From the IMG/VR virus record IMGVR_UViG_3300034141_000082: a stretch of DNA of 64,000 nucleotides; one strand, written 5' to 3'. The notes under the pieces were generated by a model. The model had not been told where the DNA came from and searched no databases. It saw only the letters and a program-made list of their open reading frames with translations. Made by a program: the position numbers and the translations under genes. This DNA comes from a virus. Positions 4,433 through 45,631 of this stretch are shown piece after piece (within the stretch, counting starts at the first letter, position 1; every line of letters begins with the position of its first letter).

Positions 4433-5005
4433 TCAGAAGTCGTCGAGCCCGGCAGCGTCGAGCGCGGCCACGGTCTCGTCCTTCGCGGGCGCGGCCTTGG
4501 CTGCCGGCTTCTTGGCGGGCGCGGCCTTGGGGGCCGGGGCCGGCGTGTCGTCCTCGTCGTCGAAGTCCGAGGGCTTGACCAGGGGGGCGTTCTTGTAGCG
4601 GTAGACCATTTCCTTCGTCGGGCTCCAGGCGCGCTTGATGCGCTCGCCCTCGGACTTGAACTTGGCCCAGAACTCCCCGCCGGTCTCGACGTCCTCGGCC
4701 TCGGCCTTGACGAGTGCCTCGATGAACGCCTTCTTCTGCGCGCCCCACCACTTGATGTAGATGGCGCGCTTGCCGTCGTCCTCGCGGCCCTGGTCGTCGA
4801 CACCCTCGTTGAGGTCGGTCTGCACGATGATGCGGACCTTCTGCTTCTGGTTGCCGTCCTCCCAGAACTCCAGCTCGTTGTCCTCGTCTCGGGACTGGAT
4901 GACGTCGGCCGAGATGACCGTGCCGCCGACGATGTCCCCGACGTTGGGGAACTTGGCGCCGCGGGCGCCACCGGTGGAGGATGCGATCAGTGCCTTGATA
5001 CCCAT
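4433..5005 (-). CDS. Actinophage-type single-stranded DNA-binding protein
   Basis: AKFPNVGDIVGGTV..Q...WEDG..K.K..I..QT pattern; acidic/Pro-Ala tail; next to the exonuclease. Confidence 0.7.
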   Translation of the reverse strand: MGIKALIASSTGGARGAKFPNVGDIVGGTVISADVIQSRDEDNELEFWEDGNQKQKVRIIVQTDLNEGVDDQGREDDGKRAIYIKWWGAQKKAFIEALVKAEAEDVETGGEFWAKFKSEGERIKRAWSPTKEMVYRYKNAPLVKPSDFDDEDDTPAPAPKAAPAKKPAAKAAPAKDETVAALDAAGLDDF

Positions 5006-5078
5006 GCGTGATTTCTCCATCTCAGAGGTTTTTTCCTGTGTGATAAATCTACGATCTGTGAATTTTTCGCGCCCCCGC

Positions 5079-5864
5079 TCACGCCGATCTGGCGGGCCGC
5101 TTCAGCAGTCCGGCAACGGTGGTCGCGGTGACGGTCGGGTTCGCTGTCGGGCATGTCGGGCGGCCGGGCGCCGGGGTGGCGAACGGGCAGCGCCGGCAGA
5201 AGTCGTCGACCGTCTTCAGGCGCTCCAGCGTGGCGGGAAGGCCGTCGTCCTCGACGGCCTGGAGAACGCGGCTGGCACGATTCAGGGCGGCTTGGGCGAC
5301 GGCCGGGTTGTAGGGCTCCTCGAACCAGAGCCGCTCACGGAACTCGCCGGCCGCGGGCATCGCCACCACCGCGACGGCGTTCACTGCGAAGCCCTCGTTC
5401 TCGTACCCGGCACCGTAGAGCTGCCCCTGGACGCGGTAGGTCTGCCCTGGACCGTGCGTCTTCTTCTCCTTGATGCTCCCGGGGCCCGGGACCTTGATGT
5501 CGACCACGGTGCCGCTGGGGACGTGGAAGAGGTCCGCGGTGCCCCAGATCTCGGTCTCGCCGTTGGTGGTGACCAGCTTCCCGACCATCACCTTGCGCTC
5601 GGTCAACCACAGGCCCTCGCCGTAGCGGATGAATTTGTCCTCGGCCCAGGCGTGGTAGCCGACGCCGACGGTCTGCCGGTGCTGGGTCTCGGGCTTCTGC
5701 CGATCGTCGGCCTGGGCCAGCTGGTAGGCCAGCTTGCGCGGGCACGGCGTGCCGAGCCCGGACGGGCCGATTAATTTCTGCTGCGAGCGTTCGTGTCCTG
5801 CCATGCCTGCGAGCACCGTCTTGGTGAAATGGTCTTCGGCGCTCAGCGACGTGTCAGGGGTCAT
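5079..5864 (-). CDS. Cas4-family (RecB/PD-(D/E)xK) exonuclease
   Basis: GPSGLG..CPRK, GTADL, VDIK, Q.QLYG and C-terminal C..CPF. Confidence 0.85.
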   Translation of the reverse strand: MTPDTSLSAEDHFTKTVLAGMAGHERSQQKLIGPSGLGTPCPRKLAYQLAQADDRQKPETQHRQTVGVGYHAWAEDKFIRYGEGLWLTERKVMVGKLVTTNGETEIWGTADLFHVPSGTVVDIKVPGPGSIKEKKTHGPGQTYRVQGQLYGAGYENEGFAVNAVAVVAMPAAGEFRERLWFEEPYNPAVAQAALNRASRVLQAVEDDGLPATLERLKTVDDFCRRCPFATPAPGRPTCPTANPTVTATTVAGLLKRPARSA

Positions 5865-21478: not shown

Positions 21479-22096
21479 TCAGTCGGTGGTGGGCGGCTCG
21501 ACCGGCGCGTCCTCGGGGGCGGCCGGCGGCTCGTCCTCGGGGGGCGTGCGGCGGGCGCGCTCCTCGGTCAGCAGGTCGTAGAGCACGTCGAGCACGTCGG
21601 GATCGGCGGTCTTCAGGTACTCGGCCACGGCGCGGTACGACAGGGAGGAGAGGTCGGCTTCCGCCAGCTCGGTGACATCGGCCTGGAACGTCTGGGCCGT
21701 GACGAATCCGCGGCGGATCAGCTGGTCGTGGGCGACCCGACTGAGGAACAGCACGCGGTCGTCGTCGGCGGTGTCGAGGTACACGGCGATCTCGGCTCCG
21801 GTCACGCTGTCCAGGTCGACCTGCGGAGCCGCGACCTCGGCCTCGAACTCGCTGGCGATCGAAGGCAGATAACCGCGACGGGAGAGCGCGGCCCGCGCGG
21901 CGTCGTACAGGCCGAAGACGCGGTAGTTGTCGGCGTCGATGAGGTACTCGTCGACCTCTTTCCGCGTGAGGGTGTCGAGGATGTCCACCGTCCAGTTCCA
22001 GGCCACCTTCTCGGCGGCGTTCTTCTGCTCGGCCACCAGGGCCGGGTCGAGCTGGGGCTGCTCCTTGGTGCCGAAGAATCGCTTGAAAATGCTCAT
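21479..22096 (-). CDS. Protein with three internal helical repeats
   Basis: LDTLT..EV.EYL.DAD / LDSVT..EI.VYL.TAD / LSSLS..AV.EYL.TAD; ATGA overlap with the sortase stop. Confidence 0.7.
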   Translation of the reverse strand: MSIFKRFFGTKEQPQLDPALVAEQKNAAEKVAWNWTVDILDTLTRKEVDEYLIDADNYRVFGLYDAARAALSRRGYLPSIASEFEAEVAAPQVDLDSVTGAEIAVYLDTADDDRVLFLSRVAHDQLIRRGFVTAQTFQADVTELAEADLSSLSYRAVAEYLKTADPDVLDVLYDLLTEERARRTPPEDEPPAAPEDAPVEPPTTD

Positions 22097-22788
22097 CGTG
22101 TGATGGCCTCCTGTCGAGTAAGGGCCGCGTGGATAACCTCGCGGCGGTGATTCCCGGTCAACAGGCAGGTGACCAGGGTGAGCAGCTTTCGTGTAGCTGG
22201 TCGGTCGGGGTGCTGCGGGTTCGGCTGGACGACGCGCATGGCGTCGGGCTCTACGACCTCGCGCTTGTAAATCACGTAAGTGAAGCGCTCGCCGGCCGCC
22301 TCGATGACGACGGCGTGCCCGACGCGCAGCTGGTGGACGTTCTTGAAGATCGCATTGCTCCGGTGTCCGGCGATGGCGACGTTGCCGATCTCGCCGGGCA
22401 GCGCCGTGCCGGGGAAGTGGCCGGGGTTGCTCTTGATATCGGCTTCTCGCACGCCCTCCTTGACGGTCCAGGAGCCACCGATCTGGGGGATGCGGAGGGT
22501 GAAGCTGTCCCGGCCCAGAACGGGGCGCAGCGGCGAGCTGTAGGGCTGCCGTGGCGACTCCAGCGTGCGGGTCGCGGGCGGGTCGACGAGTGGGGCGACT
22601 TCGATGATGCCCAGTGCGGGTTCCACGGGCGCGTCGTGCTTGGCGACAGCCATGTACCCGGTGGTGACGATGAGTGCGGAGATCAGACCGGCGCCGACGA
22701 TGACGGCCAGGTCGTGCGGGTGGAGCTTTCGACGACCCTGCGCGGAAGGGCGGACCGACGATGCTCCGCCCTTCCGAGCGGTGGTCAT
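22093..22788 (-). CDS. Sortase (class E/D-like)
   Basis: N-terminal TM; LRIPQIG, GHFPGTALPGEIGNVAIAGHR, TLVTC, downstream Arg (catalytic H/C/R). Confidence 0.92.
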   Translation of the reverse strand: MTTARKGGASSVRPSAQGRRKLHPHDLAVIVGAGLISALIVTTGYMAVAKHDAPVEPALGIIEVAPLVDPPATRTLESPRQPYSSPLRPVLGRDSFTLRIPQIGGSWTVKEGVREADIKSNPGHFPGTALPGEIGNVAIAGHRSNAIFKNVHQLRVGHAVVIEAAGERFTYVIYKREVVEPDAMRVVQPNPQHPDRPATRKLLTLVTCLLTGNHRREVIHAALTRQEAITR

Positions 22789-22934
22789 CGCCCGCGCGGA
22801 ACGATGCGGGCGACTGCCGAGGCTGTGGCGACCACGGCGAACGCCGCCAGCGCGATCCAGATGGGACCGCCCATGAAGGCGACGCCCCCGCCGACACCGG
22901 CAGCGCCGGTCACCGGGAGGAAGTTGTCGTACAC
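22785..22934 (-). CDS. 49-aa LPVTG sorting-signal micro-protein (not in ORF track)
   Basis: MYDNF-LPVTG-AAGVGGGVAFMGGPIWIALAAFAVVATASAVA-RIVPRGR; AGGAG RBS; its stop overlaps the sortase ATG (ATGA). Confidence 0.85.
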   Translation of the reverse strand: MYDNFLPVTGAAGVGGGVAFMGGPIWIALAAFAVVATASAVARIVPRGR

Positions 22935-22938
22935 GAAA

Positions 22939-23988
22939 TCACCAGCTCCTTTCGCTTGACGTACACACGTCGAGGTAGGCCCTCGCGTGGATGGATTGCA
23001 GGTAGAGGTCGTACGCCACCTCGAACATGGTGGCCGCCAGCATGGCGTGTTTCCACCCGCGATCCTTCACCGTGACCACGCGCTCCAGAACGAAGATCGC
23101 GGTCACGGCCATCCACACCGGCTGCACGGACATGCCGGTCTGGAAGATGAAAGCCACTGCGAGAGTGGACAGGTACAACGCGGTGATGAGGATGCCGACA
23201 GCGGTGAGCACCTGGCGTCCCCAGTAGCGCCAGGTCACCTTGGTCAGTCCGTATTGCAGGCAGTTCTCGATGGCCCCGCGCTTCCACCGGAGGCGCTGGT
23301 TCCAGAGTGCGCGCCAGGTGAGCATCACCTCGGTCTCCAGCGTGCAGCCAGCGGGGGACAGCACGCGGTAGCCGAGGTGGAGCAGGGCGAAGGTGAGCTC
23401 GTTGTCCTCGGTCAGCACGGTGGTGTCGTAGATGCCGCCCCGGCCGTCGCCGGCCGGCAGCACGCCGCCCAACCGGGCCGCGGACACCACGTGCAGGGTC
23501 TCTACGCGCATCACTGCGGCCGTGCCGGTGACCACCAGGCACTTCCCCTTCAGACGCCGCACGTCGCGGGCGTAGCGGGCGTACTCGCTGCGCTGGAGGT
23601 AGCCGACCAGGCCGCCGCCGGGGCCGCCTCGGAAGGTGCCTCCGACGGCTCCCAGCATGGGGTCCGCCTGGGCGTGGGTCATGGCGGTCTCGATGAAGCC
23701 GGGGTCGAGCGTGCCGTCTGCGTCCATGACGAGGACGAAGTCGTCCCCGGCCATGCCGGGCAGCAGGGCGCGCAGGGCCTGGTTGAGCCCTCCCGCCTTG
23801 ACGTGCCGGTTGTCGACGGTCTCGAACACCTCCACGCCAGCGGCGTAGGCGAGCTCGATGGTGTCGTCGGTGCAGTTGTCGGCGACGACGATGATCTGGT
23901 CGGGCGGGAGGGTCTGCCGGTGGAGGCTGGCGATGGCTGCCTGGATCACGTCGGATTCGTTGTGCGCGGGGATGAGCGCGACGATCAC
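22939..23988 (-). CDS. Processive family-2 glycosyltransferase (PgaC/IcaA/cellulose-synthase-like)
   Basis: IPAHNE, DNCTD, KAGGLN, DAD, TED, QRLRW; C-terminal TM helices. Confidence 0.92.
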   Translation of the reverse strand: MIVALIPAHNESDVIQAAIASLHRQTLPPDQIIVVADNCTDDTIELAYAAGVEVFETVDNRHVKAGGLNQALRALLPGMAGDDFVLVMDADGTLDPGFIETAMTHAQADPMLGAVGGTFRGGPGGGLVGYLQRSEYARYARDVRRLKGKCLVVTGTAAVMRVETLHVVSAARLGGVLPAGDGRGGIYDTTVLTEDNELTFALLHLGYRVLSPAGCTLETEVMLTWRALWNQRLRWKRGAIENCLQYGLTKVTWRYWGRQVLTAVGILITALYLSTLAVAFIFQTGMSVQPVWMAVTAIFVLERVVTVKDRGWKHAMLAATMFEVAYDLYLQSIHARAYLDVCTSSERSW

Positions 23989-24173
23989 GGGGCCTCCATT
24001 TCTACGGGTTGAAGTCGGTCAGCCAGCACGAATTGCTCATGCCCGCCGTGGTCGAAGGTGATCCACCGTGCGGGCTCGCCGAACGTGCCCTTGACGGTGA
24101 TGGTCAGGTCGGGGTCGAAGGTGCCTTGGCGACCCGGCAGGAACCGAGCGGTGCTGCCGGGGGTCAGGCCCAA
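23985..24173 (-). CDS. Hypothetical protein
   Basis: GTGA overlap with the GT2 start. Confidence 0.55.
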   Translation of the reverse strand: MGLTPGSTARFLPGRQGTFDPDLTITVKGTFGEPARWITFDHGGHEQFVLADRLQPVEMEAP

Positions 24174-44554: not shown

Positions 44555-45631
44555 ATGAGAATTCACGTCGTCTCCCTGCCGCACACCCAGGTCTCCCGCG
44601 AATTTGAGTGGTGCGCGTACACCGCGAAATGTAGGCGGCTCGCGAAGATGATGGCGCTCCAGCAGATCCCCATGTTCCTGTACGCGGGCGAGCTCACCGA
44701 CGCCGAGACGAAGGCCAACCTCGCCGAGGACATCTGCATCGTGGGCCCGGAGGACCGCCTGAAATGGTACGGCTCCGAGCAGTGGTCCGAAGATCAGATC
44801 TTCCACCACTGGGACCGGACGCACGACTCCTGGACGCGGATGAACCACACCGCGGTGGACGAGATCGCGTCCCGCTGGCAGGACGGCGACATCCTCGGCG
44901 TCATCGCCGGCGTCTGCCAGGAGCAGATCGCCACCGAGCTGGCCGAGCGCGGCATCAACGCCCCGGTCGTCGAGTGGGGGATCGGCTACACCGGCGTGTT
45001 CGCGCCCTACCGGGTTTTCGAGAGCCATGCCCACCGGCACCACGTCGCCGGCCTTCAGCGCGACGACGACTTCCGCCCGCTGGACACGGTGATCCCCAAC
45101 GCCTTCGACGTCGCCGACTTCATCTACCGGCCGACCCTGGGCCCGGTGGCCGACACCAGCTACCTGCTCTACCTCGGCCGCATGATCGAGCGGAAGGGCC
45201 TGGACACCGTGGCCCACTTCGCCGACCTGGGTCGCCACCTCGTTTTCACCGCCGGCCAGGGCGACATCCGGGTCGCGAACGCCGTCCACTGCGGCGTGGT
45301 GCGGGGCAAGGCCAAGGCCCGGCTCATCGCCGGCGCGCAGGCCGTGCTCGTCCCCACCCGCTACGCCGAGCCGTTCGGCGGGGTGGCCGTCGAGGCGATG
45401 ATGAGTGGAGTGCCCGCGGTCACGACGAACTGGGGCGCGTTCACCGAGACCATCCCCGCCGAGTACCGCGCTTCCACGCCCTACGAGTTCGAGCAGGCAG
45501 TCGACCGGGCGGCCATCGAGGACCGTCACAATTTCCAGCAGCGCGCCTGGGCCCGCTTCTCACTGGAGCCGGTGTCGAAGATGTACGCCGAATACTTCGA
45601 GAAGGTCTTGACCCACCACCGCTCCCGCTGA
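44555..45631 (+). CDS. GT-B (family 4-like) glycosyltransferase
   Basis: YLGRMIERKG, P..Y.EPFGGVAVEAMMSGVP..T.WGAFTE. Confidence 0.9.
   Translation: MRIHVVSLPHTQVSREFEWCAYTAKCRRLAKMMALQQIPMFLYAGELTDAETKANLAEDICIVGPEDRLKWYGSEQWSEDQIFHHWDRTHDSWTRMNHTAVDEIASRWQDGDILGVIAGVCQEQIATELAERGINAPVVEWGIGYTGVFAPYRVFESHAHRHHVAGLQRDDDFRPLDTVIPNAFDVADFIYRPTLGPVADTSYLLYLGRMIERKGLDTVAHFADLGRHLVFTAGQGDIRVANAVHCGVVRGKAKARLIAGAQAVLVPTRYAEPFGGVAVEAMMSGVPAVTTNWGAFTETIPAEYRASTPYEFEQAVDRAAIEDRHNFQQRAWARFSLEPVSKMYAEYFEKVLTHHRSR

Follow-up and report, generated by a model that had tools for sequence, protein, structure and literature searches.

Introduction

Sortase substrates are usually regarded as exported proteins with a passenger. 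Their canonical sorting signals—LPXTG or, for class E, LAXTG, as in the Streptomyces chaplins ChpA-C (PMC5148588)—comprise a pentapeptide, a hydrophobic stretch and a tail with positive charge. Here, we describe a 49-residue protein (the mini-protein) encoded in a 64,000-nucleotide stretch of phage DNA (IMG/VR record IMGVR_UViG_3300034141_000082; hereafter, the window). It resembles the canonical signals in all three elements and in having an adjacent sortase gene, and is unlike them in that (i) it has no signal peptide or passenger domain, nine residues before the predicted cleavage site taking the passenger's place, (ii) the signal's own helix and tail are conserved, and (iii) it is obligately paired, one-to-one, with a family 2 glycosyltransferase (GT2) that appears to be a polysaccharide synthase without N-terminal helices. 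Probably, the mini-protein serves a split synthase as a detachable transmembrane (TM) subunit, with a short outer tail that sortase would cut off and attach to the wall.

Small TM proteins encoded directly after a PgaC/IcaA-type processive GT2 are familiar from IcaD and PgaD. The mini-protein differs from these in having one TM segment rather than two, in carrying a sortase signal, and in seeming to replace helices that are fused to the enzyme in a sister GT2 subfamily; no sequence similarity between its family and IcaD/PgaD was found in Pfam or NCBIfam. Among class E substrates linked to a glycan, the closest precedent is the GspA/LcpA/SrtA system of Actinomyces oris, in which GspA receives its glycan first and is then attached to the wall as a class E sortase substrate (PMC6381275). 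Unlike the mini-protein, GspA is exported by Sec with a passenger; its glycan comes from a lipid-linked donor and is added outside the cell by an LCP phosphotransferase, with no synthase-type GT2 as partner (PMC6381275). Phage sortases with a substrate gene immediately upstream have been described in huge gut phages, in a 2026 preprint according to which viral sortases were previously undocumented (bioRxiv 10.64898/2026.10.24.761521); we found no viral sortases reported in the literature beyond the class B enzymes of that work. The gut modules belong to Bacillota phages and have large, signal-peptide-bearing substrates (with SHIRT and FctA domains) and no GT2, whereas the window, from an actinophage, encodes a class-E-like sortase and a candidate substrate of 49 residues.

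The model NF058583 ('LAXTG_small_WW') describes proteins of ~54 residues that begin at Met1 and in which LAxTG is followed by one TM helix. Of 27 members of the mini-protein family defined below, 14 match this model over nearly its full length, at 14–34 bits against a cut-off of 65, while the phage copies (P0001, P0002 and P0018) give no match even at E <= 10. The phage protein differs from the NF058583 pattern in having LPVTG at residues 6–10, not LAxTG just before the helix. NF058583 is a narrow model that supplies a name only, and we found no papers on the function of the family or on its link to GT2s.

The small gene between the GT2 and sortase genes

The first-pass annotation of the window described the open reading frame (ORF) at 22785–22934 as almost wholly a sorting signal, with an AGGAG ribosome-binding site (RBS) and neither signal peptide nor passenger domain. 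Each of these statements was confirmed on re-reading. Translated from its GTG start on the minus strand, the ORF encodes MYDNFLPVTGAAGVGGGVAFMGGPIWIALAAFAVVATASAVARIVPRGR, which can be laid out as MYDNFLPVTG, a Gly/Ala-rich transmembrane part, and a RIVPRGR tail (coordinates of all features are collected in Table 1). Only MYDNF precedes LPVTG. Thus, the protein has an L-P/A-x-T-G pentapeptide, and a hydrophobic segment followed by a positive C-terminal tail; the curated anchor models TIGR01167 and PF00746 do not match it. A six-frame scan of the window uncovered no other credible sorting signals. The gene is packed tightly between its neighbours: it begins 4 nt past the end of the GT2 gene (stop codon at 22939–22941), and its own stop overlaps the ATG of the sortase gene in an ATGA junction at 22785–22788, which the first-pass annotation does not mention. 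GC content at third codon positions (GC3) is 0.84.

The same GT2, mini-ORF and sortase arrangement occurs in two further metagenomic phage contigs, L001 and L007, with the start position, RBS and ATGA junction of the mini-gene kept in both. The L001 mini-protein is 86% identical to the window copy. L007 is more distant (its sortase is merely 57% identical to that of the window), and yet MYDNFLPVTGAAG and RIVPRGR are identical across all three phage copies. Between the window and L007, the mini-ORFs differ by 24 synonymous and 13 non-synonymous changes, giving a synonymous divergence (dS) of 1.17 and a ratio of non-synonymous to synonymous divergence (dN/dS) of 0.12. The mini-ORF ratio is 0.12–0.13 at dS values of 1.0–1.2, and the full range with L001 and L007 is 0.12–0.27. 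For the same window–L007 comparison, dN/dS is 0.15 for the GT2 gene and 0.32 for the sortase gene; that is, the mini-ORF ratio is as low as that of GT2, and lies below that of the sortase. This substitution pattern shows the mini-gene to be under purifying selection. Given the low dN/dS and the preserved start, RBS and ATGA junction, the mini-ORF is more than a chance reading frame, and we take the 49-residue ORF to be a true gene.

A third phage relative, L008, offers a view of what may precede such a sortase. Its sortase (L008:400-1083, + strand) is 51% identical to that of the window, and just upstream lies a longer, Pro/Lys-rich repeat protein (PPVVKPKP...; L008:3-326, + strand) that is incomplete at the contig end. 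This protein ends in GFLPVTS, a hydrophobic segment and RRRNRRG, sharing an FLPVT core with the mini-protein, and looks like a conventional substrate. On this evidence, the gene preceding the sortase in this phage lineage is predicted to encode the substrate of that sortase. Tblastn of the window sortase against 50,697 phage records gave no match, nor did peptide-pattern scans of IMG/VR with the window sortase. A DNA pattern for YDNFLPVTG was absent from viral and genome contigs; a single metagenome match was rejected as an AT-rich chance match.

A family of mini-proteins in actinobacteria and actinophages

A word-based protein search with the mini-protein returned just itself and one close copy. 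The family came to light only in an exhaustive hidden Markov model (HMM) profile search of 1.84 billion representative proteins. Seeded with the three phage copies, this search gave 23 small proteins (36–85 residues), most of them aligned over almost the entire profile. Combined with scans of individual loci, this search gives a family of 46 members from actinobacteria and phages. Several members were taken directly from DNA, as mini-ORFs at 16 GT2 loci of bacteria (L093–L107 and L121) and at L124, a second GT2 locus of genome G146. A further example, in Streptomyces sp. GCA_048270745.1 (L092:6130-6288, + strand), is missing from the called genes of that record; directly after the GT2 gene, a TTG start behind a GGGAGGG RBS opens a 52-residue member, MYNNPATTVGGGVLASTG...RIVPRGRSRA. 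The phage copies seeded the profile, and hence their own membership holds by construction; the independent evidence comes from bacterial relatives with the same gene context.

The family consensus reads M-Y-[DN]-[NK], a variable Gly/Ala/Thr-rich stretch, LAxTG, 3–8 residues, and W..LA.FAL.A.G.A..RIVPR. The helix consensus W..LA.FAL.A.G.A is kept from phages to Streptomyces. At the other end, M1 is found in 45 and Y2 in 43 of the 46 members, the rest of the tail being variable. The window copy has the M-Y start, the helix, the RIVPR tail, and a gene position beside a GT2 without N-terminal TM helices. By these marks, the phage mini-protein counts as a divergent representative of a widespread family, whose members are ~50-residue single-pass membrane proteins of actinobacteria and actinophages. 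Among 27 family relatives, seven give weak matches to TIGR01167 and four to PF00746.

Two features of the pentapeptide stand out. Firstly, a strict L[AP]xTG lies in the tail before the helix in 34 of the 46 members. When tails were shuffled, 0.55 members were expected to carry the motif on average, with a maximum of four across 2000 trials. Secondly, the motif occupies one of two places: directly before the helix (the majority), or residues 6–10. The latter group includes the three phage copies together with P0142, L102, P0162 and P0163, the last four of which carry LATTG, LAATG, LPLTG or LPATG there. In this group the pre-helix site has usually decayed; in the window copy it reads VAFMG, which the family alignment identifies as a decayed copy of the usual LAxTG site within the spacer. 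That the motif is kept while its position shifts argues for selection on the motif itself. The first-pass annotation had proposed conservation of Y..LPxTG in small ORFs beside GT2 genes as a test of its reading, and the outcome, for the pattern Y...L[PA]xTG, is positive.

In Actinomadura-type loci (L093, L094 and L105–L107), AA(I/L)TAP(W/F), or TAAAVPW in L094, replaces LAxTG. Such sequences may serve class F sortases as a variant sorting signal. The closest relative of the phage mini-protein outside the phage cassettes is P0142 (MYDKVLATTG...; L133:315-470). In its 1.2 kb contig, P0142 follows the C-terminus of a GT2 and precedes a protein with a PG_binding_1 domain (L133:524-1204).

Two members come from cultured Microbacterium phages: RobsFeet gp87 (L134:3551-3703), annotated as 'membrane protein', and Count gp61 (L135:3551-3706), annotated as 'hypothetical protein', both with LAATG. 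The GT2s of these phages belong to the same subfamily as that of the window (61–64% identical), and in each phage the mini-gene follows the GT2 gene. In RobsFeet, a second glycosyltransferase and a UDP-glucose dehydrogenase are encoded near the GT2/mini-gene pair. RobsFeet and Count are lytic (PMC7302621), and the presence of GT2 and mini-gene in cultured lytic phages makes experiments feasible.

Pairing of the mini-protein with the GT2

The GT2 sequence contains DAD, TEDNE and QRLRW motifs. The protein begins directly with its GT-A domain; its TM helices, about three in number, are all C-terminal. An AlphaFold2 (AF2) model of it has a pLDDT of 88.8; the best Foldseek matches of this model are BcsA, vertebrate and chlorovirus hyaluronan synthases (HAS), and chitin synthases, with TM-scores by query of 0.63–0.73 against 4p00, 8smm, 8smn and 7sp7. 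A search of solved structures by sequence, using a GT2 profile, gave a match to the GT-A half alone. The equivalog cut-off of PgaC_IcaA (TIGR03937, 422.3 bits) is not reached by the GT2, which scores 81.9 bits. On the strength of its motifs and its fold likeness to BcsA, HAS and chitin synthases, the phage GT2 is predicted to be a processive, membrane-embedded synthase.

Of 401 sampled Actinomycetes genomes, 38 contain a close match to this GT2 (E <= 1e-80); the best-match loci, and additionally L092 and L094, were scanned for mini-genes. A mini-gene lies beside the GT2 gene in all 17 loci whose GT2 has no pre-catalytic TM helix (directly downstream in 16, upstream in one). Near GT2s of a sister subfamily, which have two fused N-terminal TM helices, none was found in 15 loci. 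The distribution of the mini-gene is thus complementary to that of fused N-terminal TM helices, and on this pattern chiefly rests the case for a mini-protein that provides the absent helix in trans. The proposed tie between the mini-protein and its adjacent GT2 is likewise borne out by the 17 of 17 versus 0 of 15 loci, and by the motif-bearing small ORFs.

The sister GT2s (L108–L123 except L121) are 43–51% identical to the phage GT2 and have a conserved W..(F/L)YDT..P loop before TM2. The Y-D-T motif sits about nine residues before the fused TM2, and is reminiscent of the M-Y-D/N start of the mini-protein. The sister subfamily and the mini-protein family look to be linked by a fission or fusion event. 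A predicted complex of the phage GT2 and mini-protein scored an ipSAE of 0.55 (individual runs: 0.53, 0.55 and 0.59) against 0.00 for the best control; the pLDDT of the partner is at least 58, and at least 45% of contacts are common to the runs. In the calibration of such scores, 58 of 80 solved complexes and 2 of 110 mismatched pairs came up to the mark; these counts apply roughly here, since the prediction used our own alignments.

The sortase and its link to the motif

The gene that follows the mini-gene encodes a sortase (PF04203, E 8e-25). Its best class is E (NF033747), at 114.6 bits, below the 160-bit cut-off of that model. Residues H142, C208 and R216 are invariant in the sortase alignment. 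A difference from bacterial class E enzymes lies in the beta3/beta4 loop: all three phage sortases have Phe (GHF), whereas the aligned bacterial class E relatives have Tyr (GHY), the position corresponding to SrtE1 Tyr229. In SrtE1, this Tyr has been proposed as the determinant of LAXTG recognition, hydrogen-bonding the amide of the Ala at P3 (PMC5148588). A Pro in place of this Ala has no such amide to offer.

In several of ten bacterial genomes checked, a sortase gene adjoins the GT2/mini-gene pair. The order GT2, mini-gene, sortase, as in the phage, is found with class E enzymes in L124 and L125, and a convergent class E neighbour in L126. L127, an extension of the L093 locus, has a class F sortase gene (4571-5347) directly upstream of its GT2 gene; in L130, an F-like sortase gene is a divergent neighbour; and in L128 and L129, class E sortase genes are ~7.5 kb away. 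The type of motif and the type of sortase covary: GHY class E sortases are found beside LAxTG mini-proteins, GHF phage sortases beside LPVT(G/S), and the class F sortase of L127 adjoins a mini-protein with AAITAP where LAxTG would be. In the cultured Microbacterium phages, whose mini-proteins carry LAATG beside the GT2, tblastn with the window sortase found no sortase; RobsFeet and Count would consequently depend on a class E sortase of the host.

When the neighbourhoods of 80 bacterial class E sortase loci were scanned for mini-ORFs with a sorting signal, none that were convincing turned up, and one candidate (L086) was rejected because it is probably the C-terminal end, in a shifted frame, of a larger lipase-like protein. 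A row of GT2, 57-residue, polysaccharide deacetylase and GH26-like genes occurs in two bacterial metagenome contigs of a single sample; one of the contigs adds a divergent sortase gene and an 83-residue gene upstream of the GT2 gene.

A proposed detachable subunit of a split synthase

The survey shows, by gene order and alignment, a family conserved beside BcsA/HAS/PgaC-like GT2s that lack N-terminal TM helices, mostly with L[AP]xTG and often with class E or F sortases adjacent. The pattern suggests that polysaccharide synthesis is linked to wall anchoring by sortase in a way not yet described. The most likely account of the pairing, and one that escaped the first-pass annotation, is that the mini-protein also acts as the TM helix that the synthase lacks.

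The proposed sequence of events is as follows. The mini-protein would insert with its N-terminus out and its C-terminus in, without a signal peptide, an orientation suggested by an N-tail that is short and nearly uncharged and by a C-tail that is positive. The helix and the RIVPR tail, both conserved, would pack onto the GT2, standing in for the absent TM helix. The class-E-like phage sortase, with Phe for the Tyr proposed to select Ala at P3, would then cut LPVT|G at T9|G10 in its putative peptide substrate, YDNFLPVTGAAG, and the nonapeptide MYDNFLPVT would be passed via lipid II to the peptidoglycan cross-bridge; transfer via lipid II is established sortase chemistry (PMC5148588). The cleaved helix, now starting at Gly10, would remain in the membrane with the synthase. 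Processing appears integral to the module, because the phage brings a coupled sortase of its own and bacteria often place one beside the pair. The LPVTG/Phe-sortase pair would work independently of the LAxTG/Tyr-sortase system of the host.

What cleavage could achieve includes (i) coupling of the polymer, or of the synthase exit, to the wall, (ii) glycan priming on the peptide, and (iii) maturation or regulation of the subunit. We consider the likeliest purpose to be that the synthase or its polysaccharide is coupled to the wall, such that the phage would remodel the surface of the infected actinomycete. The phage cassette sits among small early-type genes, and remodelling of the surface of the infected cell is its most plausible function. 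A more elaborate version, which we regard as doubtful, gives actinobacteria and their phages an undescribed route for attaching synthase-made exopolysaccharide to peptidoglycan: the outer 9–26-residue peptide of the detachable first helix would hold the emerging glycan or be joined to it covalently, with sortase moving peptide and polymer together to the cross-bridge. The phage would then possess a self-contained three-gene kit, with an orthogonal LPVTG/Phe-sortase pair, that coats the infected host and, for example, blocks superinfection or re-adsorption of progeny.

Several observations weigh against a detachable, sortase-processed subunit. Twelve of the 46 members lack a strict L[AP]xTG, and sortase processing may therefore not be universal; moreover, LPVTG and the helix stand 15 residues apart, a long spacer by the standards of sorting signals. 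The co-occurrence counts for GT2 and mini-gene are not phylogenetically independent. Alignment of the mini-protein helix with the fused TM2 of the sister GT2s by hhalign gave a probability of 35%, over the TM segment only, and does not establish homology. The predicted complex was graded as 'weak support' and came without a list of contacts, and calibration scores of 0.60 or lower came from only 7 of the 80 solved complexes and from both mismatches.

How far the sortase motif matters is the point at which another explanation parts from ours. The mini-protein could be a synthase subunit only: an IcaD/PgaD-like accessory helix, with the L[AP]xTG-like sequence playing a structural role and never being cut by sortase. 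Such a subunit would account for the gene order, with a small TM protein after the GT2 as in icaA-icaD, for the conservation of the helix and tail, for the distribution complementary to N-terminal TM helices, and for the 12 members without the strict motif. It leaves aside that the motif is ~60-fold enriched over shuffled sequence and retained despite its change of position, that sortase genes recur beside the pair with the type of motif tracking the type of sortase, and that the phage has its own, translationally coupled sortase; we consider it improbable. The opposite emphasis, in which the peptide has no role with the GT2 and solely uses up cross-bridge amines or competes with class E substrates of the host such as chaplins, was raised in the first-pass annotation as a wall cap or decoy. 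The predicted product, a nine-residue peptide on the cross-bridge, suits this idea, as do the SsgA-like and Lsr2-like host-development genes that are also present in the phage. Nevertheless, the family is chromosomal in many actinobacteria and always linked to GT2, its helix and tail are conserved far beyond what a generic stop-transfer sequence needs, and the LPVTG motif with its Phe-sortase seems orthogonal to host LAxTG, rather than competitive with it. A cap or decoy would leave the bacterial occurrence, the one-to-one pairing with a GT2 subfamily, and the conserved helix and RIVPR unexplained, and we give it very little credence.

The remaining proposal from the same source, a glycan primer or carrier for the GT2, fares better. 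Here, the GT2 would build its polymer on the N-terminal peptide (for example, on Tyr2) and sortase would staple the peptide-linked polysaccharide to peptidoglycan. In this way, synthase-made polymers, which have no lipid carrier, would be anchored covalently to the wall. The strict pairing of GT2 and mini-gene is in keeping with this role, as is the conservation of M1 and Y2 amid a variable tail; the nine-residue wall peptide conserves little beyond M-Y and LPxT. The A. oris GspA/LcpA/SrtA system provides a precedent for a glycosylated class E substrate (PMC6381275). Against a primer, the Tyr of the Y-D-T motif in sister synthases lies in an outer loop, out of reach of the cytoplasmic active site; hence, a structural role at the channel exit is favoured over one for Tyr as a cytoplasmic acceptor. 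In addition, the related synthases HAS and chitin synthase self-prime without protein. The tie to the GT2 has held, the priming role itself has been weakened by the outer-loop location, and we think a primer or carrier unlikely.

There is a real chance that the GT2/mini-protein/sortase set, read here from sequence, is a new mechanism. If the detachable-subunit reading is right, it would establish a split-synthase architecture with a sortase-processed subunit, and open a testable route to how Gram-positive cells retain polymers from synthases that use no lipid carrier. It would also mean that actinophages carry surface-remodelling kits, in this case with a class-E-like sortase of their own.

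Phage context and neighbouring genes

Table 1. Features of the GT2/mini-protein/sortase cassette and of other genes in the window.
Feature	Position	Strand	Remarks
205-residue acidic protein	21479-22096	-	Internal repeats (...AVAEYLKTADPDVLDVLYDLLTEERARR...); begins at the sortase stop
Sortase, 231 residues	22093..22788	-	N-terminal membrane anchor; His142/Cys208/Arg216; class-E-like; Phe in GHF motif
Mini-protein gene	22785..22934	-	GTG start; 49 residues; stop included; conserved in L001 and L007
Predicted cytoplasmic tail RIVPRGR, residues 43-49	22788..22808	-	R43 invariant, P46 nearly invariant in the family
Predicted TM helix IWIALAAFAVVATASAVA, residues 25-42	22809..22862	-	Contains family-invariant Trp26; from alignment
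Gly/Ala-rich spacer, residues 11-24	22863..22904	-	From alignment
LPVTG sorting motif, residues 6-10	22905..22919	-	Invariant in the three phage copies; cleavage predicted at T9|G10
AGGAG RBS	22946..22950	-	11 nt before GTG, within the last GT2 codons; identical in L001 and L007
Putative processive GT2 synthase, 349 residues	22939..23988	-	DAD, TED and QRLRW motifs; Pfam, NCBIfam
62-residue protein	23985-24173	-	4-nt overlap with GT2 start; conserved in L001 (82%) and L007 (44%)
Second, unrelated glycosyltransferase	44555-45631	+	phrog_3408, E 1e-41; other arm of the phage

The window belongs to a phage: PHROGs matches include a primase, an exonuclease, a large terminase and a PolIII-type DNA polymerase. 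ThyX, SsgA-like and Lsr2-like proteins are also encoded by the source metagenomic contig (76.5 kb). The 62-residue gene upstream of the GT2 gene has no Pfam or PHROG match, and may be part of the cassette. The 205-residue protein encoded after the sortase gene has no Pfam or PHROG match either; with no counterpart in L007 and no family match, it was not counted as a member of the module. It is 44% identical to the product of the post-sortase gene of L008.

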